Virus record (IMG/VR): IMGVR_UViG_3300045051_000978
Coordinates: 1-64,000 of that record
Origin: a virus
Reading direction: 5' to 3' (one strand)
DNA: 64,000 nucleotides
Positions 1 through 37,031 of this stretch are shown piece after piece. A program made the position numbers and the translations under genes. The notes beneath the pieces were generated by a model. It was not told the origin of the DNA, did no database searches, and saw only the letters and a list, made by a program, of their open reading frames with translations. Within the stretch, counting starts at the first letter, position 1; each line of letters begins with the position of its first letter.

Positions 1-189
1 GGCGGAGAGCGGCACGACCATTTGGTGTTCGACCATCCAGTCCCAGTATTCCCAGGTCATGGTGCCGTGCGTCGTCTCCAGGGTCTTCGAGGTGGCGTCC
101 ACCGAGTGGACCGTCAGCTCATGCTCCTCGTACATGTAGCTCGGAGCCAGGAAGCGATAGCACACCTTGAGACCGGGTCGTGGCGTCAC
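1..189 (-). CDS. hypothetical protein, 3' end outside window
   Basis: Open frame from GTG at 189 (MTPRPGLKVCYRFLAPSYMYEEHELTV...) running off the window edge. Confidence 0.5.
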   Translation of the reverse strand, partial: MTPRPGLKVCYRFLAPSYMYEEHELTVHSVDATSKTLETTHGTMTWEYWDWMVEHQMVVPLSA

Positions 190-207
190 GATTCTACTTA
201 CCGAAAC

Positions 208-283
208 TGGTGTCCCCGGCAGGATTTCAACCTGCGACCATCCGCTTAGGACGCGGCTGCTCTTGGCGCTGAGCTACGAGGAC
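208..283 (-). tRNA. tRNA-Arg(CCT)
   Basis: Cloverleaf, anticodon loop GTCCTAA, T-loop TTGAAAT, encoded CCA. Confidence 0.9.
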
Positions 284-513
284 AAAACTTCAGGCGGCAC
301 ATCGGCACGCTTCTTCACCGGCCACGCCCTCATGCGCTCGGCATGTTCCCTGGCCAGGTGAATCGCCGTGTCGTCGCTGTTGAGGCTGATCCAGTATTCG
401 AGCACCGCCACCGCGGTGGCATCTTGCGCCCGAAGAAGGAACACTGGTTCGTCTGCCGGAATCTTGCCTTCGGGGTCCTGGATACGCTGGTAGTCTTTTC
501 GTGCGTGAAGCAT
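274..513 (-). CDS. small phage hypothetical protein (DEPVFLLRAQD motif)
   Basis: 79 aa ORF with protein-like composition, GTTCT motif upstream; stop codon falls inside the 5' end of tRNA-Arg(CCT). Confidence 0.75.
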   Translation of the reverse strand: MLHARKDYQRIQDPEGKIPADEPVFLLRAQDATAVAVLEYWISLNSDDTAIHLAREHAERMRAWPVKKRADVPPEVLSS

Positions 514-533
514 GGCACGTGCAAGAACGAAAC

Positions 534-610
534 TGGTGCTCCCGGCAGGAGTTGCACCTGCGACCTGCTGATTCGGAATCAGGCGCTCTGGCTAACTGAG
601 CTACGGGAGC
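534..610 (-). tRNA. tRNA-Arg(CCG)
   Basis: Anticodon loop TTCCGAA, T-loop TGCAACT, CCA. Confidence 0.9.
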
Positions 611-612
611 AG

Positions 613-688
613 TCCGTAGGCAAGGAATGAGCGACGGTGTTTGACTGTCCATTACGGGCAAGATAACCATCACACTGCGGCCTACAGA
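613..688 (-). ncRNA. minimal Y RNA-like RNA
   Basis: Terminal stem TCTGTAGGC/GCCTACGGA, CGCA after the 5' strand, GGTTATC motif and CTT bulge before the 3' strand; same scaffold as 2596-2726 and 3282-3415. Confidence 0.65.
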
Positions 689-691
689 AAG

Positions 692-769
692 TGGCAGCCC
701 CGGACGGTGTCGATCCGTCTTCTTCAGCTTGAGAAGCTGACATCCTAGCCAAGCGTAGACGACGGGGCC
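692..769 (-). tRNA. tRNA-Glu(CTC)
   Basis: TCAGC-TTCTCAA-GCTGA anticodon arm, T-loop ATCGACA, CCA. Confidence 0.9.
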
Positions 770-770
770 A

Positions 771-1520
771 CTAAACCACAGGAGTGCCGTAGTCGATCTC
801 GTACCCGTGGATGATTCCGTTTACATTCGCAGAAGCTGTCTGCGAGAAGTAGACGGTTCCATTGGTCACGACATGCGGCAGTCCGAAATTGATCGGGAAG
901 AACTTTGAGTCGCTTGCAGAAATCTTGATGGAGCCCTTGAACAGGTTGACGTTCACACCGACGGGTCCGTCAGAAATGGTGACGGTGCTCGTCGCGTCAG
1001 CCGTAAAGTGGATGTCCGTCACTACCGGCACCTTGCCTGGCACGGCTGCCCAGATTGGCGAATTGTATACGGAACCACTGAACTCGATGTTCCTGGTAAC
1101 GACAGGAAATCCAATCGAGTGTGGCGCGTAGCCGTGCTCGATGCCTTCAAGCGTGCTGACCTGGGACGACAGTCTGCCCGTTACGCTGCCTGTGCCTGTC
1201 CCTGCGATGATCGTCACGAACCGCAGCTTCGAGAGCGTGGCAACGGAGCCGACGAAATCTTCAGCTACATGCACGTGCTGCGCGTAGCCGTCACCGCCGA
1301 TTTCGCGCAGCGTGATTGGCGTGAACACGCCATCAAAGCAACCCTGAAACTGAATGCACGCCCCGGCAGGCGGCACGATGTGAAAGCCGATGCTGTTGTA
1401 CCCCTGGCACGAAAGCTCGTAGTACGAGCCAAGAGCACCGTTCAGAACCCCCGTAAACGAAGCACCATCCGACGTTTTGCCGTCTGCGGCCTGCGGGTTG
1501 GGTACGAGGGTCCGGATCAT
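771..1520 (-). CDS. hypothetical protein, beta-rich, possibly virion-associated
   Basis: 249 aa ORF filling the gap between tRNAs; TACTTA motif 4 nt upstream of ATG. Confidence 0.75.
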   Translation of the reverse strand: MIRTLVPNPQAADGKTSDGASFTGVLNGALGSYYELSCQGYNSIGFHIVPPAGACIQFQGCFDGVFTPITLREIGGDGYAQHVHVAEDFVGSVATLSKLRFVTIIAGTGTGSVTGRLSSQVSTLEGIEHGYAPHSIGFPVVTRNIEFSGSVYNSPIWAAVPGKVPVVTDIHFTADATSTVTISDGPVGVNVNLFKGSIKISASDSKFFPINFGLPHVVTNGTVYFSQTASANVNGIIHGYEIDYGTPVV

Positions 1521-1544
1521 GCCCTAAGTAGCAACTGAAAACTG

Positions 1545-1607
1545 CCGAGCAAGTTGAGCGCTGACGGTGGTAACCTTGGAAAGATAACCGTCAACAATTC
1601 GGCTCGG
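1545..1607 (-). ncRNA. minimal Y RNA-like RNA
   Basis: CCGAGC-CGAA-TTGTTGACGG-TTATC...ACCGTCAGCG-CTCAACTT-GCTCGG; shares CGAA, GGTTATC and CTCAACTTG with 2596-2726. Confidence 0.7.
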
Positions 1608-1613
1608 ACAAAG

Positions 1614-1691
1614 TGGCAGTGCCGACGGGTCTTGCACCCGTTAGGACCGGCTTGAAAAACCGGGTACGCGAGCTGCTTTGTATTCGGCACC
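1614..1691 (-). tRNA. tRNA-Glu(TTC)
   Basis: Anticodon loop TTTTCAA, T-loop TGCAAGA, CCA. Confidence 0.85.
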
Positions 1692-1699
1692 GTTGAAAA

Positions 1700-1776
1700 T
1701 GGTGCCAACGGCTGGGATCGCACCAGCGACACCTCGATTTTCAGTCGAGTGCTCTACTGATCTGAGCTACGTTGGC
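1700..1776 (-). tRNA. tRNA-Phe(GAA)
   Basis: CTCGA-CTGAAAA-TCGAG, T-loop TGCGATC, CCA. Confidence 0.92.
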
Positions 1777-1780
1777 AGAG

Positions 1781-1856
1781 TGGTGGTCACGGCAGGATTC
1801 GCACCTGCGACCTATCGGTTATCAACCGATTGCTCTGACGGCTGAGCTACGTGACC
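1781..1856 (-). tRNA. tRNA-Ile(GAT)
   Basis: ATCGG-TTGATAA-CCGAT, T-loop TGCGAAT, CCA. Confidence 0.92.
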
Positions 1857-1866
1857 GAAAATCGGT

Positions 1867-1895
1867 AAACAAAAAGCGCTGCCGTGGCAGCGCTT
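1867..1895 (-). terminator. intrinsic terminator-like hairpin
   Basis: AAGCGCTGCC-AC-GGCAGCGCTT followed by TTTGTTT, just downstream of CDS 1902-2018. Confidence 0.6.
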
Positions 1896-1901
1896 CGCAA
1901 T

Positions 1902-2018
1902 TCACTTTTTCAGTTCAGGTTTGCCGGGCGTAATCTCGACGCTGACGGCTTCGTCTTTCGGCCGCGGCCGAAGCAGGCGTAGCAACCACGCCAGGAACCT
2001 GGACAACCAACCGAACAT
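1902..2018 (-). CDS. 38-aa peptide with amphipathic N-terminus (MFGWLSRFLAWLLRLLRPRPK...)
   Basis: ATG overlaps the stop of 2018-2341 (TGATG coupling); below the ORF track cutoff. Confidence 0.55.
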   Translation of the reverse strand: MFGWLSRFLAWLLRLLRPRPKDEAVSVEITPGKPELKK

Positions 2019-2341
2019 CACTTCAGTTCGGGCACCCCGGCAACCACGAGGGCGGAGACCGCCTCGGCCGGGCGCACCTCGATGTCGAGGGTGCCGGTGA
2101 TCGGACGCACGCCTTCACCCAGGTCGGCATCCGCCTCGCACACCACCTGCGCGACACCAAGCGCCCCGGAGGCAAGCGCGGTGGCGGACAGCCCATCTTC
2201 GCTCGGCACGACCGTGATGACGGTCTCGTCCGAGCTGCTCCAGGCAGGCGTGCCATCAACCCGTGCCGGATTACCGGCGGCGGTCTTGAAGGCAACGTTG
2301 AGCTGGACCTTCTGCTCATCGGTAAGGATCAGTGCTGGCAT
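2018..2341 (-). CDS. Ig-like domain protein
   Basis: PAWSSSDETVITV pattern typical of Big_2-like Ig domains; start moved to ATG 2341 downstream of TAGTTA. Confidence 0.7.
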   Translation of the reverse strand: MPALILTDEQKVQLNVAFKTAAGNPARVDGTPAWSSSDETVITVVPSEDGLSATALASGALGVAQVVCEADADLGEGVRPITGTLDIEVRPAEAVSALVVAGVPELK

Positions 2342-2365
2342 AGCGTCGTAACTACGCCCAAGTGA

Positions 2366-2457
2366 TGGCGGCTCCGGCAGGATTTCAACCTGCATCCGTT
2401 TTTAGGCGGCACTCCGATTTCGAGTCGGGGGCACTGGGCGATTGATGCGACGGAGCC
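2366..2457 (-). tRNA. tRNA-Ser(CGA)
   Basis: Anticodon loop CTCGAAA, long variable arm, G73, T-loop TTGAAAT, CCA. Confidence 0.88.
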
Positions 2458-2463
2458 AAAGTG

Positions 2464-2588
2464 TCGAGCAGGGATTTCACCGGATGATCAATCCGTTTTC
2501 GGCTTTCGCCTACTTATTCCGCGCTATGCCGGCTGGCGCGAGTATCCAGGGGAATCGAACCCCCTCGCGGCGCGTCTATCCTGCCCGA
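2464..2588 (-). ncRNA. unassigned structured RNA containing a canonical T-arm
   Basis: Ends pair (TCGGGCAGG/CCTGCTCGA); internal GGGGG-TTCGATT-CCCCT and GGC-GAAA-GCC hairpins. Confidence 0.5.
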
Positions 2589-2595
2589 AAGGAAT

Positions 2596-2726
2596 GACGA
2601 TCAAGTTGAGCTGAGGATGTTTTAGGTGCTCTACCACTGAGCTACCCTGGCGTGTTGTGCCAGGGGTTGGACTCGAACCAACGACCACCCGCTATGTAGG
2701 CGATAACCCTCTGCATTCGGACCGTC
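2596..2726 (-). ncRNA. YrlA-type bacterial Y RNA (permuted tRNA-like domain)
   Basis: GACGGTC-CGAA...GGGTTATC, then T-arm (GTTGG-TTCGAGT-CCAAC), loop-closed acceptor stem (CCCTGGC-ACAACAC-GCCAGGG), D-arm (TAGCTCAGTGGTAGAGC), ending CTT-GATCGTC. Confidence 0.85.
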
Positions 2727-2730
2727 AAAA

Positions 2731-2837
2731 TGGCTGCCGGAGCTTCGTCTCAGAAGCACCACCCTTGCGGATGGATCGACGTGAGGACCAGCTGGGCAGT
2801 AACCGGTGTGCCTTCGCCATTTCCACCGTATCCGGCT
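2731..2837 (-). ncRNA. unassigned CCA-ended tRNA-like RNA
   Basis: GCCGGA/TCCGGC terminal stem followed by AGCCA; T-arm-like GCTTC-TGAGAC-GAAGC; no recognisable anticodon arm. Confidence 0.5.
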
Positions 2838-2846
2838 GTTCGAGAA

Positions 2847-2936
2847 TGGCGGATGGTGCAGGCTTCGCTCCTGCGCGGGTTTTACCCCGACTTCGCGCTT
2901 CCAACGCGATACCTTACTGGACTCGGTCAACCATCC
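2847..2936 (-). tRNA. tRNA-Ser(GGA)
   Basis: TCGCG-TTGGAAG-CGCGA, long variable arm, T-loop AGCGAAG, CCA. Confidence 0.88.
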
Positions 2937-2938
2937 AT

Positions 2939-3034
2939 TCCACCGTGATTTCCATGCTTACGTCGTCGCAGTGACTCAGAGCCTCCTTGCGGTACAGCTC
3001 TCGCACCCTAAGGGCGCTTTTGGCACACGGTGGA
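2939..3034 (-). ncRNA. unassigned structured RNA
   Basis: 9-bp terminal stem TCCACCGTG/CACGGTGGA fills the gap between two tRNAs; internal hairpins including a GCAA tetraloop. Confidence 0.45.
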
Positions 3035-3045
3035 TTTCTGCGAAA

Positions 3046-3135
3046 TGGCGGCTGGTGCAGGATTCCCACCTGCGTTCGTGTAAACGAAACCTCCGGGTTC
3101 AAGCCGGGTGCCTTAGGGTGCTCGGCCAACCAGCC
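3046..3135 (-). tRNA. tRNA-Ser(TGA)
   Basis: Anticodon loop CTTGAAC, long variable arm, T-loop TGGGAAT, CCA. Confidence 0.88.
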
Positions 3136-3139
3136 AAGA

Positions 3140-3274
3140 TCAGGCCAGGAACAGCTCTCTTTCTGAGGACCGCAGTCCCCAGCGATGTCCGCACCGGCAG
3201 TCCCTGTGCTGCGTTATGCCGGTAACCACGAACCTCCGGTGTTCCAGTAGGCGACGAGCCGCCTTTTGGCCTGA
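3140..3274 (-). ncRNA. unassigned structured RNA
   Basis: Terminal stem TCAGGCCA/TGGCCTGA with several internal stems (ACCGGCA/TGCCGGT, GGGGAC/GTCCTC). Confidence 0.45.
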
Positions 3275-3281
3275 AAAATAT

Positions 3282-3415
3282 GACGGTCAAGGGAGTAGAC
3301 AAGGATGTTTTAGCGCTCTACCACTGAGCTACGCTGGCGTATGGAGCCAACGGTGGGACTCGAACCCACGACCGCCTCATTAACATTGAGATAACCCTCA
3401 TCAGTTCGGACCGTC
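3282..3415 (-). ncRNA. YrlA-type bacterial Y RNA (permuted tRNA-like domain)
   Basis: GACGGTC-CGAA-CTGATGAGGG-TTATCTCAAT, T-arm GTGGG-TTCGAGT-CCCAC, loop-closed acceptor stem CGTTGGC-TCCATAC-GCCAGCG, D-arm, ending CCCTT-GACCGTC. Confidence 0.87.
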
Positions 3416-3421
3416 AAAAAT

Positions 3422-3514
3422 TGGCGGCGGATCGAAGCAACAGGTTTGGACCCTGATGTTTTGTATACGGGGCGGGTTCGTACAGCTGCCATAGCCCCTT
3501 CACTCCGACCCGCC
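3422..3514 (-). ncRNA. unassigned CCA-ended RNA with long terminal stem
   Basis: 13-bp stem GGCGGGTCGGAGT/GCTTCGATCCGCC followed by GCCA. Confidence 0.55.
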
Positions 3515-3529
3515 ATGCGGTTTTCAAAA

Positions 3530-3606
3530 TGGCGTCCTCGGCAGGAGTTGCACCTGCGGCCTCCACCTTCGCACGGTGGCGCTCTGGCTGACTGAGCTAC
3601 GAGGAC
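3530..3606 (-). tRNA. tRNA-Arg(GCG)
   Basis: CCACC-GTGCGAA-GGTGG, T-loop TGCAACT, CCA. Confidence 0.9.
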
Positions 3607-3610
3607 AAAT

Positions 3611-3686
3611 TGGTGCTCCCGGCAGGACTTCAACCTGCAACCGACGGGTTAGAACTCCGCCGCTCTGGCAATTGAGCTACGGGAGC
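3611..3686 (-). tRNA. tRNA-Arg(TCT)
   Basis: Anticodon loop GTTCTAA, T-loop TTGAAGT, CCA. Confidence 0.87.
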
Positions 3687-3697
3687 GTAGCTAAAGT

Positions 3698-4507
3698 ATG
3701 GACAGCTGGCTCCAAGCCTTCGGTGCGACAGGTCTGCTATTTCACGCGGCAGCGCTCTACGTCTGGATAACGCTACGCAAAAACGTAGACAAAAGCGTGT
3801 GGTGGTCTGTCACCATCGGCTACATCGCCCTTTTATCGCATCGCGCAAACGAGCTTGCCGGGTGGTCAAACGTTTACGCCCAGACAAGCGCAGTGGTGAT
3901 CGCGTACATCGCGCTCTACGCTGTCCTGCGCGCAAAACGGCACATCGCCCTGACCAAAGCATTCAGTCAGCTGATTGCGAAAATGGCGGAAGTTGAGCAG
4001 CCCAAGCGTCAAATGGCGCAGGCCCTTGCAGAACGCCTTATCGAACTGAAAGCCCAGGTAGACGTGCTGCAAACAGCACCGCCGGCAGAACCCCCCTTTC
4101 GCGATAGGCTAGCCACTCGACTGGCCAACCACTTCATCGAAGCCAGGGAACGGCTGCATACCATGGGCGCTCAGATGCAGCTCTACAAGGATGTTGCGGA
4201 CGCGTCGCCCGTGCCGATGGTGATTACCGATTTCAACGGCAAGCTCACGTACGCCAACCCAGCCTACCTGCGCTTCGTCGGCGCTTGCCTCAAAGACGTA
4301 CTGGGCGAAGGCTGGAGAAGCCGAGTTGATCCGGCTGTCATCGAAGAGGTGGCATCCGCCTGGCAGGCCGCAATACAACAAGAAAGCACGCACGCTCAAG
4401 GCGCAGTATCGTTCCTGGTAGACGGCGTGCCCATCAAATGCGTTTACAGCATGACACGCATCACTGAGGGCTACTGCGGATTCATACTGCCGACCAACGG
4501 TCGGTGA
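3698..4507 (+). CDS. membrane-anchored PAS domain protein
   Basis: Three hydrophobic N-terminal segments, coiled-coil linker, PAS pattern DASPVPMVITDFNGKLTYANPAY...LGEGW. Confidence 0.8.
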   Translation: MDSWLQAFGATGLLFHAAALYVWITLRKNVDKSVWWSVTIGYIALLSHRANELAGWSNVYAQTSAVVIAYIALYAVLRAKRHIALTKAFSQLIAKMAEVEQPKRQMAQALAERLIELKAQVDVLQTAPPAEPPFRDRLATRLANHFIEARERLHTMGAQMQLYKDVADASPVPMVITDFNGKLTYANPAYLRFVGACLKDVLGEGWRSRVDPAVIEEVASAWQAAIQQESTHAQGAVSFLVDGVPIKCVYSMTRITEGYCGFILPTNGR

Positions 4508-4510
4508 AAA

Positions 4511-4585
4511 TGGCTGCCAAGGTAGGACTCGCACCTACAACCACCTGATTAACAGTCAGGCGCACCACTATTGTGCTACTTGGCA
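4511..4585 (-). tRNA. tRNA-Asn(GTT)
   Basis: CCTGA-CTGTTAA-TCAGG, T-loop TGCGAGT, CCA. Confidence 0.92.
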
Positions 4586-4592
4586 ACGAAAT

Positions 4593-4679
4593 CGGTGCAC
4601 GCTACGGGAATCGAACCCGCCGCCGCTGACAAACACGGATCAACCCGTGTCCAACGTTCGCGCCAGCTTGCAGAATGCA
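4593..4679 (-). ncRNA. tRNA-like RNA with canonical T-arm, no anticodon arm, no CCA
   Basis: Imperfect acceptor-like stem, GCGGG-TTCGATT-CCCGT T-arm, long internal hairpin; ends CCG. Confidence 0.45.
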
Positions 4680-4685
4680 GAAGAT

Positions 4686-4761
4686 TGGTCGAGCTGGTGG
4701 GATTCGCACCCACGGCCTCCTCGCCCCGAACGAGGCGCGCTGACTGCTGCGCTACAGCTCG
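4686..4761 (-). tRNA. tRNA-Pro(CGG)
   Basis: CCTCG-TTCGGGG-CGAGG, C1-G72, T-loop TGCGAAT, CCA. Confidence 0.92.
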
Positions 4762-4765
4762 AAAA

Positions 4766-4840
4766 TGGTCGGGACGGTGAGCTTTGCACTCACGACCTCC
4801 TGCTCCCAAGGCAGGCGCGCTACTCCTGCGCTACGTCCCG
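4766..4840 (-). tRNA. tRNA-Pro(TGG)
   Basis: CCTGC-CTTGGGA-GCAGG, T-loop TGCAAAG, CCA. Confidence 0.92.
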
Positions 4841-5335
4841 TCTGAAATCTGAAGACACGTTCGTGCCGTCGCTGTTGAACGTCACCTCCGCCGGCATGCG
4901 TTTGACGACGATGTTTTTGAGCAGGTGCTCATGCACAGGGCACGAAACAGGCTCCGTGCAGATCGGAACAAACCAACCGACAAAACCGTCTACAGAAACG
5001 TAACCAACGTCCATGAAGCCCTGAAGGATTCCGCCGGTTGGCTGCACGTGTTCCACCGCCAGGTGCTTCACGCCGATCCGATGGCGCACCACGTGGTCCC
5101 ATACCGATTCAACCTTCAGGCGCGAGCTTGGCGTCAGTGTGCTCAGCCATCCGCGGCCGACGACCTGGTCAATCGGCTGCATGATCAGCTTCTGGTAGTT
5201 CAAGTTGATGTGAACCCAGTCGCCCGACTTGTCGGCCACGAACATCGGCACAGGACAGGACTCGACGATGGCCGTGCGAATCGTTTCGCGACTCGTAATC
5301 AGCGTGGTTGCAAGAGCCTCGGCGAGCGTACTCAT
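4820..5335 (-). CDS. stand-alone PAS domain protein
   Basis: ESCPVPMFVADKSGDWVHINLNY...VGRGW PAS pattern; TAGTTA upstream; stop lies inside tRNA-Pro(TGG). Confidence 0.8.
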   Translation of the reverse strand: MSTLAEALATTLITSRETIRTAIVESCPVPMFVADKSGDWVHINLNYQKLIMQPIDQVVGRGWLSTLTPSSRLKVESVWDHVVRHRIGVKHLAVEHVQPTGGILQGFMDVGYVSVDGFVGWFVPICTEPVSCPVHEHLLKNIVVKRMPAEVTFNSDGTNVSSDFRRDVAQE

Positions 5336-5354
5336 CCCAGATAACTAGCTGAAA

Positions 5355-5431
5355 TGGTCGGGATGGCGGGCTTCGCACCCGCGACCTCCAGTCCCCCAGA
5401 CTGGCGCGCTACCTTTCTACGCTACATCCCG
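5355..5431 (-). tRNA. tRNA-Pro(GGG)
   Basis: CCAGT-CTGGGGG-ACTGG, T-loop TGCGAAG, CCA. Confidence 0.92.
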
Positions 5432-5453
5432 TCAAAAAGCTGTTCTCTCCCGC

Positions 5454-5717
5454 ATGGAACGCAACTGGAGAGAGGAAATCGCTGAGCGCAACGCGGAAGC
5501 ACTGTTCATCGGCGATCCCGAAGACCGTAAGTTCGACGAAGCCATTGTCGGCATCGGCTCACGCTGTGGCCAGCCTGACCTTCTTGTCTACAGCTACGAG
5601 AAGATCATCGACGTACTCGTCAAGGACGGCATGGAGCGTGAGGAGGCCACGGAGTACGCCGACTTCAACATCGTCGGTGCCTGGGTGGGCGAGCACACGC
5701 CGATCATCCTCACCTGA
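5454..5717 (+). CDS. phage hypothetical protein (FDEAIVG...EY.DFNI.GAWVGE.TP type)
   Basis: 87 aa acidic ORF of a type recalled from phage genomes; GTTCT upstream. Confidence 0.8.
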   Translation: MERNWREEIAERNAEALFIGDPEDRKFDEAIVGIGSRCGQPDLLVYSYEKIIDVLVKDGMEREEATEYADFNIVGAWVGEHTPIILT

Positions 5718-5723
5718 AAAGGA

Positions 5724-5821
5724 TTGCCGATCAGGAACGAGCACCCCGTGTGGCATTGGCCCCTTTACTTCCGTCGGGGTGACGTGGGGGCCTTCAGGCA
5801 CACCGCTCGTTCTGGCGGCAA
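5724..5821 (-). ncRNA. unassigned rod-like hairpin RNA
   Basis: Nested stems TTGCCG/CGGCAA, AACGAGC/GCTCGTT, GTGTG/CACAC, GGCCCC/GGGGCC with internal loops. Confidence 0.5.
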
Positions 5822-5823
5822 AA

Positions 5824-5942
5824 TGGCGGGGAAGGCTGGACTTCAACCAGCTTCCTGACACCGTCCGGTGCCCGACTCGTCTGTGAAGGTGTCCGGCGGA
5901 CATGTGCTCGCCGTTTGCTCTTCACGCTTCGTCTTCATCCCC
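5824..5942 (-). ncRNA. CCA-ended RNA with tRNA-like acceptor and T arms, 119 nt
   Basis: GGGGATG/CTTCCCC followed by GCCA, T-arm GCTGG-TTGAAGT-CCAGC, no standard D or anticodon arm. Confidence 0.6.
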
Positions 5943-5946
5943 AGAG

Positions 5947-6024
5947 TGGCGGTGCGTACGGGCTTCGCTCCCGTGGCCTTCCGGTAGACAGCCGGGCGCT
6001 CTGACTGGACTGAGCTAACGCACC
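5947..6024 (-). tRNA. tRNA-Asp(GTC)
   Basis: Anticodon loop CTGTCTA, G73, T-loop AGCGAAG, CCA. Confidence 0.9.
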
Positions 6025-6058
6025 AAAGTAACAGGCGACCGTGTTCAGCGGTCGCCAG

Positions 6059-6163
6059 TGAAGTCCCCAGGATTCCATCACGTTCCTGCCTTAGATGATG
6101 GCGTCTGAACAACGCCAGTGGGATTCCGAGTACCCACATTCCGATCCGTTCACCTGGGCTTCA
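6059..6163 (-). ncRNA. unassigned structured RNA
   Basis: Terminal pairing TGAAG-CCCAGG/CCTGGG-GA-CTTCA with several internal hairpins. Confidence 0.4.
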
Positions 6164-6166
6164 GAA

Positions 6167-6244
6167 TGGCGGACTGCGCCTGACCTCGCGTCTCCCATGC
6201 CCGGAGGCAAGGATCGCGGAGATTGCGCGAAACAGGCGCAGTCC
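6167..6244 (-). ncRNA. CCA-ended minihelix-like RNA
   Basis: Perfect 12-bp stem GGACTGCGCCTG/CAGGCGCAGTCC followed by GCCA. Confidence 0.6.
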
Positions 6245-6253
6245 AGAAAGCGT

Positions 6254-6724
6254 TTACCACGTGGCGTCGGTATCGCGCACGCGTCGAAGAAACAGAAACT
6301 CAATTGGCTCACCGCGCCGAATCGCGGCAACAGAGCGATGGTAACCGTCGCCGTGGTTCATCTCGTCCGAAGCCCATTCCCTGAACGAAGCTCCACTTCC
6401 AACGATGTACGGCCACCTCTCCTGACCTGCATCCCACAGGCTCGCAATGTGCCGAATACGCTTTTCGTCAGAAGCGTGCAGCGGCTTCTCAGAGCCAAGC
6501 TTCCAGCCGATACCGTACCACGCCTTGCGCATCTTCTCGGCTGGATACGCTTGCAATCTGTAAACGTATTTTCGGACGTGCTCATCGTACTCGTCCTCCT
6601 CGACGCCACCATCCACGATCATGTACTGCCAGAGTGCGTCTTTGGCACGTTTTGGCAGGCTGTCGTACGAAATCCAGCGCCCTTCGCAAAGAAGGGCCTC
6701 AACGATGCGCTGAGCTGACAGCAT
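6254..6724 (-). CDS. hypothetical protein with N-terminal xxLLxE peptide, possibly ParB-like (GDGYHR)
   Basis: 156 aa ORF starting MLSAQRIVEALLCE; DGYHR resembles the ParB/Srx motif. Confidence 0.7.
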   Translation of the reverse strand: MLSAQRIVEALLCEGRWISYDSLPKRAKDALWQYMIVDGGVEEDEYDEHVRKYVYRLQAYPAEKMRKAWYGIGWKLGSEKPLHASDEKRIRHIASLWDAGQERWPYIVGSGASFREWASDEMNHGDGYHRSVAAIRRGEPIEFLFLRRVRDTDATW

Positions 6725-6739
6725 GCTTTACGTACAGAA

Positions 6740-6815
6740 TGGCTGCCGCGGTGGGCCACGATCCCACAACCTTCGGAGTCAGAGTCCGACGCTCTGCCAA
6801 TTGAGCTACGCGGCG
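6740..6815 (-). tRNA. tRNA-Gln(CTG)
   Basis: TCGGA-CTCTGAC-TCCGA, mismatched 1:72 pair, T-loop ATCGTGG, CCA. Confidence 0.9.
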
Positions 6816-6829
6816 TCTACGAAATACTC

Positions 6830-6938
6830 CAGCGGGAGTTTGTCCTGCGGTCGTCTCGGATGTGCATGTACCGGTCATCCTCGTCGCCGTGGCTCAGGAC
6901 TGTTGCATCCACGCGTTGCAATGCGCGCAGCCCCGCTG
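6830..6938 (-). ncRNA. unassigned structured RNA
   Basis: CAGCGGGG/TCCCGCTG terminal stem, inner stems GTCCTG/CAGGAC and GGATG/CATCC. Confidence 0.45.
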
Positions 6939-6942
6939 AAAT

Positions 6943-7078
6943 TGGTGGACCTGCGGAGGAGTCGAACCTCCAGGCAGCGTGACCGGTCTGGCACTCGCGC
7001 CGCCTCCATCCCTGGGATTCACCCGCGGCCCGGATTGATTACCGGCAAAGTTCCCACACCGCAGGATCGGGCAAGCCC
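6943..7078 (-). ncRNA. CCA-ended RNA with alanine identity elements, 136 nt
   Basis: GGGCTTGC/GCAGGTCC stem (G3:U70), A73, CCA, canonical T-arm GGAGG-TTCGACT-CCTCC; no standard anticodon arm. Confidence 0.65.
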
Positions 7079-7082
7079 AAAA

Positions 7083-7173
7083 TGGTGGTAGCGGCTGGAG
7101 TTGCACCAGCGGTGTTTACCTCAGGGGTGACGGATTTACAGTCCGTGTCGTTCGCTGCTACGGGTACGCTACC
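7083..7173 (-). tRNA. tRNA-Tyr(GTA)
   Basis: ACGGA-CTGTAAA-TCCGT, long variable arm, T-loop TGCAACT, CCA. Confidence 0.9.
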
Positions 7174-7751
7174 AAGAAATCGTTTGCGAGCTTACGCACG
7201 CGCTCCAGGCACTTCTCGTAGTGCGCATTGGCCCAGACGTGCATGAACGTCGGCTTTTGACCACCGAGCAGCGACCGCGGATTGGCGATCACGTGCTCTG
7301 GAAAAAGGGCTCGTCTCTTCACGACAGCCGGAAGAGCCAAAAGGCTGGCCATGAAATCTTGCTCCTGCAACCGGTGATCCAGCCAGTTCGGCATGCTGTC
7401 GTGGACCGTAGACAGAAGCCAGTTTGACCATCTGCCGGCCTTGTACAGGACTGCGCCGCTACAGATGCCGTTGTAGTCCTGCGACGCCGTGAACTCAACC
7501 GACTCGTCGTATACAATCGGATCGCACTTCACAGGTACGATGTCGATGTCCATCCACATGACGTAGTCGAACGCCTGGAGCTTCGAGCGCACCAGCGCGT
7601 AGCGGCTTTTGTATGGATGAACGCCCTGGGGTGAAGACTGTAGTTCGTACTCCCACCCATTCCGAGCGCACCAGCGCTGGACAGCAGGTGAGGCGGCTTC
7701 CGCGTACGGTCTGTACCTGGCGTCAACCGCCTGGAAAATAAGCCGACCCAT
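7158..7751 (-). CDS. GT-A fold glycosyltransferase (GT34-like)
   Basis: FDYVMWMDID DxD motif, DYNGICSGAVL and EQD motifs. Confidence 0.75.
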   Translation of the reverse strand: MGRLIFQAVDARYRPYAEAASPAVQRWCARNGWEYELQSSPQGVHPYKSRYALVRSKLQAFDYVMWMDIDIVPVKCDPIVYDESVEFTASQDYNGICSGAVLYKAGRWSNWLLSTVHDSMPNWLDHRLQEQDFMASLLALPAVVKRRALFPEHVIANPRSLLGGQKPTFMHVWANAHYEKCLERVRKLANDFLVAYP

Positions 7752-8203
7752 CAGTACCTCGAAAACCCTCGGCGGCTGAAAGCGCGGTCGTAGCTTTTGA
7801 CATCTTCGAGGGACCGACGCTGAAGCGATCCGATCCAGTAGCGAATTTCGTCCGCTCCACGCTCAAGCGCGCCTGCGTGCACGAAAATGGCCTTGCGCCG
7901 TCGCCACAGCTTCCACCCGTCGCCTTCCTGGCGTGCCAGGCGTGCCTTCACCGTCACGTAACCTTTGTCTACGGAATTGATCAGTGTCAGCCGAACGTGC
8001 GTGTAAACGCGACCGTTCGCGTTGAGTGCGGTGATGGGCTCGTGAAGTGGGATGTTCAGCACCGCGACGTTGTCGCTGAGCGCCGTCATCCCAAGCTCTG
8101 TTGCGATCTCTCTGATCGGCGAAGGCTGGTCCAGAAAATCGCGAATGGCGTCCAGGTCGGAGTCATCGTCGTCCACGCCGTTCTCGCCGTTCTCGATCAG
8201 CAT
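7751..8203 (-). CDS. hypothetical protein
   Basis: Start moved to ATG 8203 (MLIENG) because the longer ORF runs through tRNA-Trp; stop overlaps the next ATG. Confidence 0.65.
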   Translation of the reverse strand: MLIENGENGVDDDDSDLDAIRDFLDQPSPIREIATELGMTALSDNVAVLNIPLHEPITALNANGRVYTHVRLTLINSVDKGYVTVKARLARQEGDGWKLWRRRKAIFVHAGALERGADEIRYWIGSLQRRSLEDVKSYDRAFSRRGFSRY

Positions 8204-8215
8204 CCTGGCGGAAAG

Positions 8216-8288
8216 TGGCACGGAGAGAGGGTGCTGCCCCCTCCAGGACTGGTTTTGGAGACCGGTCTGCACAGCTGGTGCCCTCCGT
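8216..8288 (-). tRNA. tRNA-Trp(CCA)
   Basis: Anticodon loop CTCCAAA, G73, aberrant T-loop GGCAGCA, CCA. Confidence 0.8.
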
Positions 8289-8289
8289 A

Positions 8290-8529
8290 TCAAAGCTCTG
8301 GAAACATGCCTCGTTGCTTGCCGCGGCTGTAGTAGCGCGGGTCCTCGGCGAGGTGGTCGAGTGCGATCTCCTCGGCGACCTTCGGGTCGTTCGTGTGCTC
8401 CATCTCGACCTCGATCCCCATCTTCAGCTCCTCGGGATCGACGCCGCTGGTGTCGTGCAGCTCGCCTTGACGACTTCCACCTGGGATGTGGTCTTCAAGG
8501 AGTCTGTTTACGATCAAGCGCGCATTCAC
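8290..8529 (-). CDS. DUF5661-like phage protein with N-terminal LLE peptide
   Basis: ELKMGIEVEMEHT...IALDHLAEDPRYY motif; TAGTTA 4 nt upstream of GTG. Confidence 0.8.
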   Translation of the reverse strand: MNARLIVNRLLEDHIPGGSRQGELHDTSGVDPEELKMGIEVEMEHTNDPKVAEEIALDHLAEDPRYYSRGKQRGMFPEL

Positions 8530-8542
8530 GCCCTAACTAGAG

Positions 8543-8618
8543 TGGTGGAGCGGGGGAGAGTTGCACTCCCGACCTTCGCAATGCCATTGCGACGTTCTGC
8601 TATCTGAACTACCGCCCC
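8543..8618 (-). tRNA. tRNA-Ala(GGC)
   Basis: G3:U70, TCGCA-ATGGCAT-TGCGA, T-loop TGCAACT, CCA. Confidence 0.92.
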
Positions 8619-8623
8619 GAAAG

Positions 8624-8880
8624 TGGGGGCTGTCGGGGTTTTCACCCTTTGTCGGCAACAGCCGGGTGCCGGCGCAGTTGATTTCACGCTTTGTCGTCCC
8701 GTGCTTCAGCGCCAGGGATCGAACCTGGCCTACCGAGTAACCCCGGCGTTCACCGTAAACTACGCGAAGCACGTCTACTGCGAAAGCAAGCGGCACCCCT
8801 TTTACGCTGACGGACAGATTCGTGATTTCGAGGTCGCACGACCGACCCGCTGCCGTCCCACGGACAAGCCAAGTGCCGCT
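8624..8880 (-). ncRNA. unassigned multi-domain RNA region with an embedded tRNA-like domain and a CCA end
   Basis: Closed domain 8789-8880 (AGCGGCACTT/GGGTGCCGCT); cloverleaf 8700-8773 with 4-nt anticodon-position loop and TTCGATC T-loop; terminal GGCTGTTG/CGACAGCC followed by CCCA. Confidence 0.5.
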
Positions 8881-8883
8881 AAA

Positions 8884-8959
8884 TGGTGGAAGTGACAGGA
8901 CTCGCACCTGCAACCTGATGCTTGCAAAGCACCTGCTCTACTAATTGAGCTACACCCCC
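8884..8959 (-). tRNA. tRNA-Ala(TGC)
   Basis: G3:U70, anticodon loop TTTGCAA, T-loop TGCGAGT, CCA. Confidence 0.92.
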
Positions 8960-8970
8960 GTGAAAACTGT

Positions 8971-9204
8971 TTACCAAACGACCGGATTGGAAGTTCGGTT
9001 ACCGATCTGCTCGCCGTTCGCAAGGTACGACTGCTCGCCAGAACTGTAAACGAATTTCAACTCATGACCGGTATCGTTCCGGAGGCTGGCTCCTGGAGCC
9101 ACCGTGAGAGGTTCGCCGATGGTCAATGTCTGGCCCTCCAGCTTGAGGCTCGGGTACCGGCCCAGGCGCGAAACGCGCACACTTCCTTTCAACGTCATGC
9201 TCAT
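8971..9204 (-). CDS. hypothetical protein
   Basis: 77 aa from ATG 9204 (MSMTLKGSVRV), GTTCT upstream; the longer ORF overlaps tRNA-Gly. Confidence 0.6.
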   Translation of the reverse strand: MSMTLKGSVRVSRLGRYPSLKLEGQTLTIGEPLTVAPGASLRNDTGHELKFVYSSGEQSYLANGEQIGNRTSNPVVW

Positions 9205-9218
9205 GCTTGGTTCAGAAC

Positions 9219-9294
9219 TGGAGCACCCGACCGGCTTTGCTCCGGCGACATCCACGTTGGCAACGTGGTGCTCTACTGGCTGAGCTACGGGTGC
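9219..9294 (-). tRNA. tRNA-Gly(GCC)
   Basis: CCACG-TTGCCAA-CGTGG, U73, T-loop AGCAAAG, CCA. Confidence 0.92.
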
Positions 9295-9299
9295 AGAAA

Positions 9300-9405
9300 T
9301 GGGTTGCAGACGCAACGTTGAGAGGTAAGCTCCGGGGCGCTCGCTTCGGTGGAGAGTTGGCACTCGATCAACACCTGGGCAAGCGCCCCGGAACCATTCC
9401 TACAA
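9300..9405 (-). ncRNA. unassigned long hairpin RNA ending in CCA
   Basis: GTTCCGGGGCGCTTGC/GCGAGCGCCCCGGAGC stem, terminal TTGTAG/CTGCAA followed by CCCA. Confidence 0.5.
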
Positions 9406-9538
9406 AGAACAGAACACCCAGTTGCATGGCCTTTTGCCGTGCACCCGCTGGTTTACTGATCTCCAGGGCTCCGTAACCCCTTCGACCTTCTCGGCGGTCT
9501 TCGCGACCTTATCGCAGTCGCTCGCGGCCTTACGGCTT

Positions 9539-9576
9539 AAAATGAAAAACCCGCTATCCGTTTCCGGGTAGCGGGC
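9539..9576 (-). terminator. attenuator terminator upstream of the RNA array
   Basis: CCCGCTACCCG-GAAA-CGGATAGCGGG followed by TTTTTCATTTT. Confidence 0.8.
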
Positions 9577-9601
9577 TAAAAAGTCCTGATGACCCTCCAG
9601 C

Positions 9602-36957: not shown

Positions 36958-37031
36958 TGGTGCCTGCGGCAGGAATCGAACCCGCTTGTCCCGGTTTAGA
37001 GTCGGTAGGCCAGCCAATGGCCCACGCAGGC
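36958..37031 (-). tRNA. amber suppressor tRNA (anticodon CTA)
   Basis: GCCTGCG/CGCAGGC acceptor stem, anticodon loop CTCTAAA, canonical TTCGATT T-loop, CCA. Confidence 0.85.

Follow-up and report, generated by a model that had tools for sequence, protein, structure and literature searches.

The tRNA array and its setting

Record IMGVR_UViG_3300045051_000978 of the IMG/VR database is a linear virus record of 126,921 bases, estimated to be 76% complete, and its first 64 kilobases (kb), the window analyzed here, contain a dense array of transfer RNA (tRNA) genes. The record (G000) encodes an NAD-dependent DNA ligase, a family A polymerase (PolA), a DnaB-type helicase, and a baseplate wedge protein, genes that point to a large tailed phage as its source. 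With default settings, ARAGORN finds 18 minus-strand tRNAs at 208-9294; tRNA-Glu(CTC) was added by a relaxed ARAGORN run and Rfam, and tRNA-Tyr(GTA) was added by Rfam with 35.6 bits. The array thus comprises 20 firm tRNAs in 9.1 kb, all on the minus strand. Nineteen of these score 33.8-72.1 bits with the Rfam family RF00005, for which the cut-off is 29 bits, while tRNA-Ser(GGA) is called by ARAGORN only.

One further element resembles a Trp tRNA, has a single base between its acceptor and D stems, and lies where a regular Trp tRNA stands in the related phage G001. With no Rfam match at E ≤ 1 and a folding z-score of only -0.52, it is counted as a doubtful tRNA gene. The first-pass annotation had counted 22 array tRNAs, a number that ARAGORN and Rfam do not reproduce with their 20 firm genes and one doubtful one. 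The array has the density of a tRNA array unit, meaning at least 20 tRNA genes on a phage or mobile element. It reaches to 207 bases from the contig end, and its gene order parallels that of a relative whose array has about 40 tRNAs, so some of the window's array is probably missing from the record.

Loss of TTC and matched D-loops

The tRNA elbow contacts G18:psi55, G19:C56, and T54:A58 are among the most invariant in biology. In the window, T54-T55-C56 is found in none of the 20 firm array tRNAs, as the first-pass annotation had claimed. The T-loop begins with TGC in 11 of them (Arg-CCG, Phe, Ile, Arg-GCG, Asn, three Pro, two Ala, and Tyr), with AGC in three (Ser-GGA, Asp, and Gly), with TTG in three (Arg-CCT, Ser-CGA, and Arg-TCT), with ATC in two (Glu-CTC and Gln-CTG), and with TGG in Ser-TGA. 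These five starts had been named before together with GGC, which occurs only in the doubtful Trp-like gene. U54 is retained in 15 of the 20 and U55 in five. All 11 TGC loops read TGC[A/G]A and match the consensus UGNRA (U1, G2, a purine at 4, and A5); the AGC, TTG, TGG, and ATC classes lie outside it.

The letters at positions 18 and 19 of the D-loop follow those of the T-loop. The three tRNAs with G56 (Arg-CCT, Arg-TCT, and Ser-CGA) all carry GC and hence C19, Ser-TGA has AC opposite G55 G56, and Glu-CTC and Gln retain GG with U55 C56, all in agreement with the first-pass annotation. Its statement that tRNAs with G55 mostly have AG also stands, with Ile-GAT (AGCCGTCA) as an exception and Pro-GGG (AGAAAGGTA) readable as either AG or GG. 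The canonical elbow letters (G18 G19 with T54 psi55 C56) are absent from the array tRNAs, among which GG appears only in Glu, Gln, and perhaps Pro-GGG.

Numbering within the D-loop is ambiguous, and in a MAFFT alignment of 123 tRNAs the 18-19 dinucleotide was scattered over columns; a script therefore counted fits over all allowed registers, with 1-3 bases on either side of 18-19, and T-loops were shuffled among tRNAs 5000 times as the control. The rule requires A at 18 if 55 is G and G at 18 otherwise, with the complement of 56 at 19. The window count covers 19 scripted tRNAs, without Tyr; over all sets, the script skipped five tRNAs with irregular D-stem notation. Seventeen of the 19 fit the rule against a shuffle mean of 9.3 (standard deviation 1.4, maximum 14), and none of the 5000 shuffles reached 17. 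The two misses are Ile-GAT and Glu-CTC, whose GG sits in an 11-nucleotide (nt) loop outside the allowed registers. Proper numbering had been named in advance as something that might remove the covariation; with every register scored, it persists. The elbow pairs of the window tRNAs (Table 1) appear to be replaced rather than lost.

Table 1. Array tRNAs, the doubtful Trp-like gene, and the CTA tRNA outside the array, by position in the window
Gene	Position	Strand	T-loop	D-loop	Elbow letters	Remarks
tRNA-Arg(CCT)	208..283	-	TTGAAAT	AGCGCCAA	G18 C19:U55 G56	ARAGORN; Rfam 53 bits
tRNA-Arg(CCG)	534..610	-	TGCAACT	AGTTAGCCA	A18 G19:G55 C56	
tRNA-Glu(CTC)	692..769	-	ATCGACA (A54, A58)	ACGCTTGGCTA	GG kept	Rfam 40.7 bits; relaxed ARAGORN
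tRNA-Phe(GAA)	1700..1776	-	TGCGATC	AGATCAGTA	AG	
tRNA-Ile(GAT)	1781..1856	-	TGCGAAT	AGCCGTCA	no AG; readable as CG or GT	exception
tRNA-Ser(CGA)	2366..2457	-	TTGAAAT	CAATCGCCCA	GC	long variable arm
tRNA-Ser(GGA)	2847..2936	-	AGCGAAG	GAGTCCAGTAA	AG	ARAGORN
tRNA-Ser(TGA)	3046..3135	-	TGGGAAT	GAGCACCCTAA	A18 C19:G55 G56	both pairs changed
tRNA-Arg(GCG)	3530..3606	-	TGCAACT	AGTCAGCCA	AG	
tRNA-Arg(TCT)	3611..3686	-	TTGAAGT	AATTGCCA	GC	
tRNA-Asn(GTT)	4511..4585	-	TGCGAGT	AATAGTG (7 nt)	A18 G19	single register
tRNA-Pro(CGG)	4686..4761	-	TGCGAAT	AGCAGTCA	AG	
tRNA-Pro(TGG)	4766..4840	-	TGCAAAG	AGGAGTA (7 nt)	A18 G19	single register
tRNA-Pro(GGG)	5355..5431	-	TGCGAAG	AGAAAGGTA	AG or GG	
tRNA-Asp(GTC)	5947..6024	-	AGCGAAG	AGTCCAGTCA	AG	
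tRNA-Gln(CTG)	6740..6815	-	ATCGTGG (A54:U58)	AATTGGCA	GG	
tRNA-Tyr(GTA)	7086..7173	-	TGCAACT		CAG in D-loop region	long variable arm; Rfam alignment
Trp(CCA)-like gene	~8215..8288	-	GGCAGCA	CAGCU (5 nt)		doubtful; cloverleaf fold
tRNA-Ala(GGC)	8543..8618	-	TGCAACT	AGATAGCA	AG	G3:U70
tRNA-Ala(TGC)	8884..8959	-	TGCGAGT	AATTAGTA	AG	G3:U70
tRNA-Gly(GCC)	9219..9294	-	AGCAAAG	AGCCAGTA	AG	U73
tRNA, anticodon CTA (amber reader)	36958..37031	-	TTCGATT		GG	outside array

Covariation across related arrays

The same rule was applied to six sets of tRNAs, which consist of native controls and five arrays: that of the window, those of the related phages G001 and G005, and those of two metagenome-assembled genomes (MAGs) from Lacunisphaera (G003) and Prosthecobacter (G004). 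Taken together, the six sets hold 131 tRNAs, of which 119 obey the rule; shuffling gave a mean of 50 (maximum 67), and none of the 5000 shuffles reached 119. Seven-nucleotide D-loops allow a single register; among these, G55 C56 occurs with A18 G19 in 17 of 20 tRNAs, U55 C56 with GG in 14 of 14, C55 C56 with GG in three of three, and U55 G56 with GC in two of two, while one U55 A56 tRNA carries GA, a mismatch. AG is available in 56 of 65 tRNAs with G55 C56 versus one of 48 with U55 C56, a covariation of A18 with G55 at the level of letters only.

Pair 19:56 occurs as G:C, C:G, U:A, and A:U across the sets. Pair 54:58 is U:A in 80 of the 117 proper tRNAs of the five arrays, A:U in 19, and A:A in 18, with no other combination. 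All three elbow pairs, 18:55, 19:56, and 54:58, therefore differ in more than one way among these genes, and the pattern is that of three co-varying contacts. TTC occurs in four of the 117 tRNAs: none of 20 in the window, three of 37 in G001, none of 23 in G005, none of 23 in G003, and one of 14 in G004.

The Arg-TCG tRNA of two Verrucomicrobiota arrays (L251 11338-11412 and L237 4064-4138) has a T-loop starting with TGA (G55 A56) and AT at 18-19. This double change is conserved and brings in a U19:A56 pair.

Orthologous tRNAs in related phages

G001 (199 kb) and G002 are near-identical records with a ligase 55% identical to that of the window's phage and a syntenic array of about 40 tRNAs in 24 kb. 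In G001, 38 ARAGORN calls have T-loops starting with ATC (23), TTG (5), TTA (3), TCC (2), ATT (1), and TTC (4). Three of the TTC calls are Cys, Ser-GGA, and Tyr, and the fourth is a tRNA-like piece of 68 nt. G005, with a polymerase 46% identical, has 23 tRNAs with TGC (17), AGC (3), TCC (1), TCG (1), and ATC (1).

Between G000 and G001, tRNAs with the same anticodon are 61-91% identical, and their T-loops and D-loops differ in concert. For Asp (85% identical), ATC(GAAG) with GG in G001 stands against AGC with AG in the window. Phe, Asn, two Ala, and two Pro tRNAs have ATC with GG in G001 and TGC with AG in the window, and Ser-GGA has TTC with GG versus AGC with AG. In Arg-CCG and Arg-GCG both pairs differ, with TTA and GT in G001 against TGC and AG in the window. 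Orthologues that are unlike at both partners of a pair have identities of 70-91%. Pro-GGG is 91% identical with ATCGAAG in G001 and TGCGAAG in the window, a difference that would most simply be two separate one-step departures from TTC. These concerted differences, made by different substitutions, indicate that the phage lineage avoids TTC and does so by more than one route, G001 mostly through A54 and G005 mostly through G55.

Signs of working genes

The stems of the 19 scripted window tRNAs contain 404 base pairs, all Watson-Crick or G:U, with no mismatches. U8, U33, and an encoded 3′ CCA are present in all 19, along with anticodon loops of 7 nt. Identity marks are also in place, as judged by rules for Ala, Pro, and Gly tRNAs that come from work on E. 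coli: G3:U70 with A73 in both Ala tRNAs, C1:G72 with A73 in all three Pro tRNAs, and U73 in Gly. The array genes look like working tRNAs. Decayed pseudogenes and reduced tRNAs of the mitochondrial kind were considered and are ruled out by the 404 stem pairs without a mismatch and by the compensated tertiary pairs.

An RNA library (X15, word share 0.06) matches eight listed contig pieces, including 477-610 over Arg-CCG, although the library consists of contigs only, may contain DNA, and allows neither ends nor strand to be read, so that it speaks neither for nor against expression. Of the 19 scripted tRNAs, eight have the T-stem GCAGG/CCTGC in common (Arg-CCT, Arg-CCG, Ile, Ser-CGA, Ser-GGA, Ser-TGA, Arg-GCG, and Arg-TCT) and yet differ in their T-loops (TTG, TGC, AGC, and TGG). 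The TGC loops of the window are borne on seven different T-stems.

The first-pass annotation had read the compensatory changes as a sign of functional tRNAs under selection. This is well supported by the three co-varying pairs, the perfect stems, the orthologue pairs, and the variety of substitutions. Taken alone, the proposal that these are working tRNAs with compensated elbows is far more probable than the longer chain of reasoning about their purpose that is built on it below.

Non-decoding RNAs and Ro60

Six canonical T-loop cores of the form GTTCGANYC lie on the minus strand of the array, at 2552-2560, 2670-2678, 3357-3365, 4608-4616, 6959-6967, and 8716-8724. All six are outside the decoding tRNAs, in Y RNA-like, minihelix-like, and other small elements. 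Within the array, canonical T-arms survive only on non-decoding RNAs.

Two of these elements, at about 2625-2700 and 3290-3405 on the minus strand, are permuted tRNA-like elements: a T-arm and 3′ acceptor strand come first, then a 5′ acceptor strand and finally a D-arm with GTAGCTCAGTGGTAGAGC. YrlA-type Y RNAs have this layout, and the elbow letters are canonical; a sub-threshold Rfam tRNA match (25.3 bits) covers 3345-3405. A 136-nt element at 6943-7078 (minus strand) ends in a canonical T-arm (GGTTCGACTCC) followed by ACCA, lacks a cloverleaf body, and matches no Rfam family at E ≤ 1.

A full Ro60 gene (TROVE and vWA_Ro60 domains) lies inside the G001 array. At three Verrucomicrobiota loci, an array stands beside or around a TROVE (Ro60) gene, and RtcB adjoins in two of them. 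TROVE has no match in the 127-kb record G000, which ends inside its array, so that such a gene may lie past the contig end, and RtcB was not found in the four phage records. More than 250 bacteria and phages are known to have Y RNAs with a tRNA-like domain beside Ro60 (PMC4201824), and in Salmonella, cleaved tRNA induces the rsr-yrlBA-rtcBA operon (PMC7790460).

Distribution among viruses and bacteria

The 17-mer T-arm of tRNA-Ile(GAT), GCAGGTGCGAATCCTGC, has exact copies in at least 120 viral stretches, and the tRNAs that carry it serve several amino acids. Of the first 80 viral loci, 59 lie in a called tRNA, and the D-loop there mostly has AG instead of GG. Cellular genomes also hold the 17-mer in at least 120 stretches; 26 of 120 are tRNAs, and about 70 chance matches are estimated. 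Among the matches listed, eight loci have at least two tRNAs with TGC or AGC loops, and all bear Verrucomicrobiota titles (L140, L192, L200, L231, L236, L237, L244, and L245). Cyanobacterial (L162) and Chloroflexaceae (L227) arrays have two to three TGC tRNAs among mostly TTC ones. Since the eight loci bear Verrucomicrobiota titles and an Asp tRNA is 85% identical, a Verrucomicrobiota host is our guess for this phage.

In the Prosthecobacter MAG, the array lies on a contig of 591 kb and has 14 proper tRNAs, 13 of them with TGC or AGC loops. In the same MAG, all 19 scattered native tRNAs examined have TTC with GG. The first-pass annotation had pointed to host tRNAs with the same elbow as a result that would undo its reading; the natives of this array-bearing MAG are canonical, and the MAG is not known to be the host of this phage.

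When 468 open reading frames (ORFs) of the record were compared with the genome loci by tblastn, one weak match appeared and none beside the bacterial arrays. A megablast search of 1-9600 found no match among cultured phages, and a distant blast search with the Phe and Ile genes returned 105 records of ordinary phage tRNAs. The one record examined among these belongs to the cultured jumbo Burkholderia phage BcepSauron (MK552141.1), in one stretch of which nine of 10 tRNAs have TTC. The remaining one, Leu-CAA (L274 1761-1846), has the T-loop TTGGAGT and GC in its D-loop (C19:G56), and the record lists no tRNA features there.

Bacterial leucine tRNAs normally have a long variable arm. Three tRNAs with Leu anticodons (GAG, CAA, and CAG) in the Prosthecobacter array (L250 9065-9140, 10432-10505, and 10512-10586) are 74-79 nt long and lack this arm, and short Leu-anticodon tRNAs are also present in L140, L236, L244, and L245. 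They may have a non-leucine identity.

Other genes of the phages and islands

The tRNA with anticodon CTA, an amber reader outside the array, is canonical and conserved in G000, G001, and a further relative, G006 (window 36958-37031, L006 1061-1134, and L272 167-241). In G006 it lies about 470 bases from a gene for peptidyl-tRNA hydrolase of the archaeal/eukaryotic type (PTH2). PTH2 is encoded at 77080-77424 of G000 and also in G001 and G006, array or no array.

Genes for two PAS-domain proteins stand among the tRNA genes, at 3698-4507 (plus strand) and 4820-5335 (minus strand), the plus-strand gene opposing the array. The Lacunisphaera array, too, has a large PAS histidine kinase at its flank. 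Among the four phages, only G000 has a homologue of adenylosuccinate synthetase (84054-85142, E 2.6e-61). It also encodes a PRA-PH (MazG-like) family protein, which is among 46 ORFs in the window at 290-58082, in addition to the family A polymerase. We take this trio of adenylosuccinate synthetase, MazG-like protein, and PolA to recall the PurZ/MazZ genes of phages with 2-aminoadenine DNA.

Proposed resistance to T-loop nucleases

The array may be read as working phage tRNAs with a rebuilt elbow that is free of U54-U55-C56 in every member. The sequences show the matching: G55 is accompanied by A18; G56, A56, or U56 by a Watson-Crick partner at 19; and A54 by U58 or A58. The L-shape would be kept. 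The commonest form, UGCRA with an adenine, would be the T-loop/receptor design of riboswitches, so that the main class would swap a tRNA-specific contact for a generic one. The TTG, TTA, and TGG classes would instead swap a Watson-Crick pair, and the A54 classes would use A:A, as in eukaryotic initiator tRNA, or a reversed A:U. The purpose would be to let translation continue while an enzyme that cuts at the T-loop UUC destroys ordinary tRNAs. Candidate enzymes are Schlafen-type immune nucleases such as Cash and toxins such as CdiA-CT E479. More speculatively, the non-decoding RNAs with canonical T-arms (Y RNA-like and minihelix-like) could act as nuclease decoys.

To account for all the classes, a factor must read the UUC triplet as a whole, because TGC, TTG, and TGG loops keep U54 while ATC, TTG, and TTA loops keep U55. 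Such readers are known. CbCash, a Schlafen nuclease of type III CRISPR immunity, cuts many tRNAs 5′ of U55 at the T-loop UUC (PMC13462974), and a single mutation of U54 or U55 abolishes its cleavage (PMC13462974, 2026). Its authors leave open whether phage tRNAs are targets (PMC13462974). CdiA-CT E479 cuts the T-loop between T and psi (PMC9086364). In riboswitch T-loops, the consensus is UGNRA, and the intercalating base is almost always an A that is hydrogen-bonded to the G at position 2; the same source draws a contrast to the U that tRNA has at this position (bioRxiv 10.1101/2022.12.26.521914). The loss of UUC common to all classes, taken with nucleases known to read UUC, is what suggests a tRNA set hardened against T-loop cutting, and for this whole chain we put the chances of being right and of being wrong about level.

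Several observations weigh against it. Ile-GAT departs from the 18:55 rule. The shared T-stem GCAGG/CCTGC suggests duplication or short-tract copying within the array, so some T-arms may not have been independently selected. Canonical Cys, Ser-GGA, and Tyr tRNAs persist in G001, which is unexpected if every tRNA must be hardened, and the CTA tRNA is canonical in a phage that bears the array. G006 (polymerase 58% identical, 98% complete) has no array, and its sole tRNA is the canonical CTA. No Schlafen domain was found in G000, G001, or the Lacunisphaera MAG, an uninformative absence, and the sole Schlafen match in the Prosthecobacter MAG is a DNA methylase fusion that is silent on tRNA cutting. 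The first-pass annotation had proposed escape from a factor that reads the canonical elbow; this is plausible and gains a published candidate in the Schlafen nucleases (PMC13462974), while the remaining canonical CTA, Cys, Ser-GGA, and Tyr tRNAs count against it.

The array could also be a neutral or near-neutral alternative design with no enemy behind it. Accessory tRNAs freed from the TTC constraint would have spread by duplication and short-tract gene conversion, with A18:G55 and the swapped 19:56 pairs folding as well as the canonical ones. The T-stem common to eight of the 19 scripted tRNAs fits this explanation, as does the presence of one and the same T-arm in tRNAs for several amino acids across so many viral stretches. 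Lone swapped tRNAs also occur in canonical sets, namely Leu-CAA of BcepSauron and one to two TGC tRNAs among the 8-16 of cyanobacterial arrays, and UGNRA with an adenine is a proven stable design. However, drift from TTC ancestors should leave many TTC genes, and four of 117 remain. A single copied arm is insufficient for TGC loops on seven T-stems, sister lineages left TTC by different single steps in one orthologue, and the housekeeping tRNAs of the same cell, in the Prosthecobacter MAG, are canonical in 19 of 19 cases. A neutral origin is considered unlikely. Avoidance of restriction sites (TTCGAA, TCGA) was also considered and rejected: ATCGA loops retain TCGA, and canonical GGTTCGA arms persist in the array.

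Two further explanations give the elbow a different reader. Under self/non-self marking, the phage or island would bring or recruit an activity against canonical tRNAs, either an unrecognized nuclease or Ro60 with Y RNA and the host PNPase, and a near-complete private tRNA set, unseen by it, would take the place of the host pool. The relatives with about 40 tRNAs and a large set of anticodons agree with this, as do the Ro60 gene within the G001 array, those next to or within three bacterial arrays, and the Y RNA-like elements with canonical tRNA-like elbows that lie between the rewired tRNAs. Such an activity would, however, also attack the phage's own canonical CTA tRNA and Y RNA-like elements, a chromosomal island gains little by destroying the tRNAs of its own cell, and G000 has no TROVE gene. 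When 154 ORFs of the 127-kb record were scanned with Pfam, neither an RNase nor a Schlafen domain nor an RNA ligase was recognized, which is weak evidence since most ORFs have no family (29 further families were found in 137 batch-scanned ORFs). Altogether, self/non-self marking seems quite improbable.

The remaining explanation is avoidance of host modification enzymes or elbow binders, whether for independence from them or to avoid being held. TruB acts at position 55, TrmA at 54, and TrmH at Gm18; tRNAs with G55 lack the TruB target, those with A54 lack the TrmA target, and those with A18 lack the Gm18 site. However, no single enzyme of this kind covers all classes, given how many of the window tRNAs keep U54 or U55, and the Y RNA-like elements of the same array retain canonical loops. 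We know of no benefit of escaping enzymes of the TrmA, TruB, or TrmH type, and this explanation is very unlikely. Position 55 of a tRNA-like T-loop is a site of TruB action as well (PMC4201824).

An extension of the hardened-set proposal, which we hold only tentatively and think more apt to fail than to stand, is a mobile "protected translation kit" passing between phages and the chromosomes of Verrucomicrobiota. One half would be a near-complete tRNA set, rebuilt at three tertiary pairs, that offers no UUC to T-loop immune nucleases. The other half would be Ro60, Y RNAs, and minihelices with canonical T-arms that absorb these nucleases or signal their presence. In that case, cutting at the T-loop would be an antiviral strategy common in nature, and the letters most conserved in tRNA would be kept by the habit of the cell rather than by a need of the ribosome.

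Comparison with known systems

The literature searched, in which subscription journals and supplements are largely outside coverage, holds no account of phage or array tRNAs with G55/A18 or an array-wide loss of TTC. The window adds a single lineage with A54, G55, and G56/A56/U56 with a swapped partner side by side, orthologue pairs that show the paired changes, covariation at 54:58, and a published nuclease that matches the avoided triplet. A whole natural set of apparently working tRNAs appears to replace three near-invariant contacts with matched alternatives. As a natural experiment, it bears on which features of the elbow are required by the ribosome, RNase P, the CCA enzyme, EF-Tu, and the synthetases, and rewired elbows may serve as orthogonal tRNA scaffolds.

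Phage tRNAs reportedly evade anticodon-loop nucleases. The likeness lies in a phage set that is altered at the spot that a tRNA-cutting defense reads. Unlike the window array, the anticodon-loop changes need no change in a partner; here the changes fall at T-loop positions 54-56, extend across the array, and come with matched D-loops, and resistance is predicted from sequence. The array may thus be the T-loop counterpart of those tRNAs. For the Cash nucleases, the blocking substitutions at U54 and U55 are among the kinds found in the window tRNAs; the paper concerns the nuclease, and its accessible text does not describe natural resistant tRNAs (PMC13462974). The array genes are candidates for such natural resistant substrates and bear on that paper's question about phage tRNAs.

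Published tRNA array units are likewise dense clusters of 20-40 tRNAs with encoded CCA on phages, plasmids, and islands (PMC5966550, PMC12803027), and one abstract calls tRNA arrays a putative anti-defense system (PMC5966550/PMC12803027). A rewired elbow is not described in the accessible text of these sources, whereas the window array is defined by its array-wide loss of TTC and by covariation. The main class, with U54 G55 N56 R57 A58 and A18, has the same letters as the riboswitch UGNRA motif but places them inside decoding tRNAs (bioRxiv 10.1101/2022.12.26.521914). Eukaryotic initiator tRNA has A54:A58 (PMC7912444), which is repeated in the window ATC and AGC classes with A58; unlike there, A54 occurs in phage elongator tRNAs and also in a swapped A54:U58 pair (19 of 117). 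Compared with the known Ro60/YrlA/RtcB loci, the window array shares Y RNA-like elements, and G001 and the bacterial arrays share Ro60. The published loci, as far as their accessible text goes (PMC4201824, PMC7790460), are not described with arrays of rewired-elbow tRNAs, and G000 differs from them in having its Y RNA-like elements without a Ro60 gene in the record.

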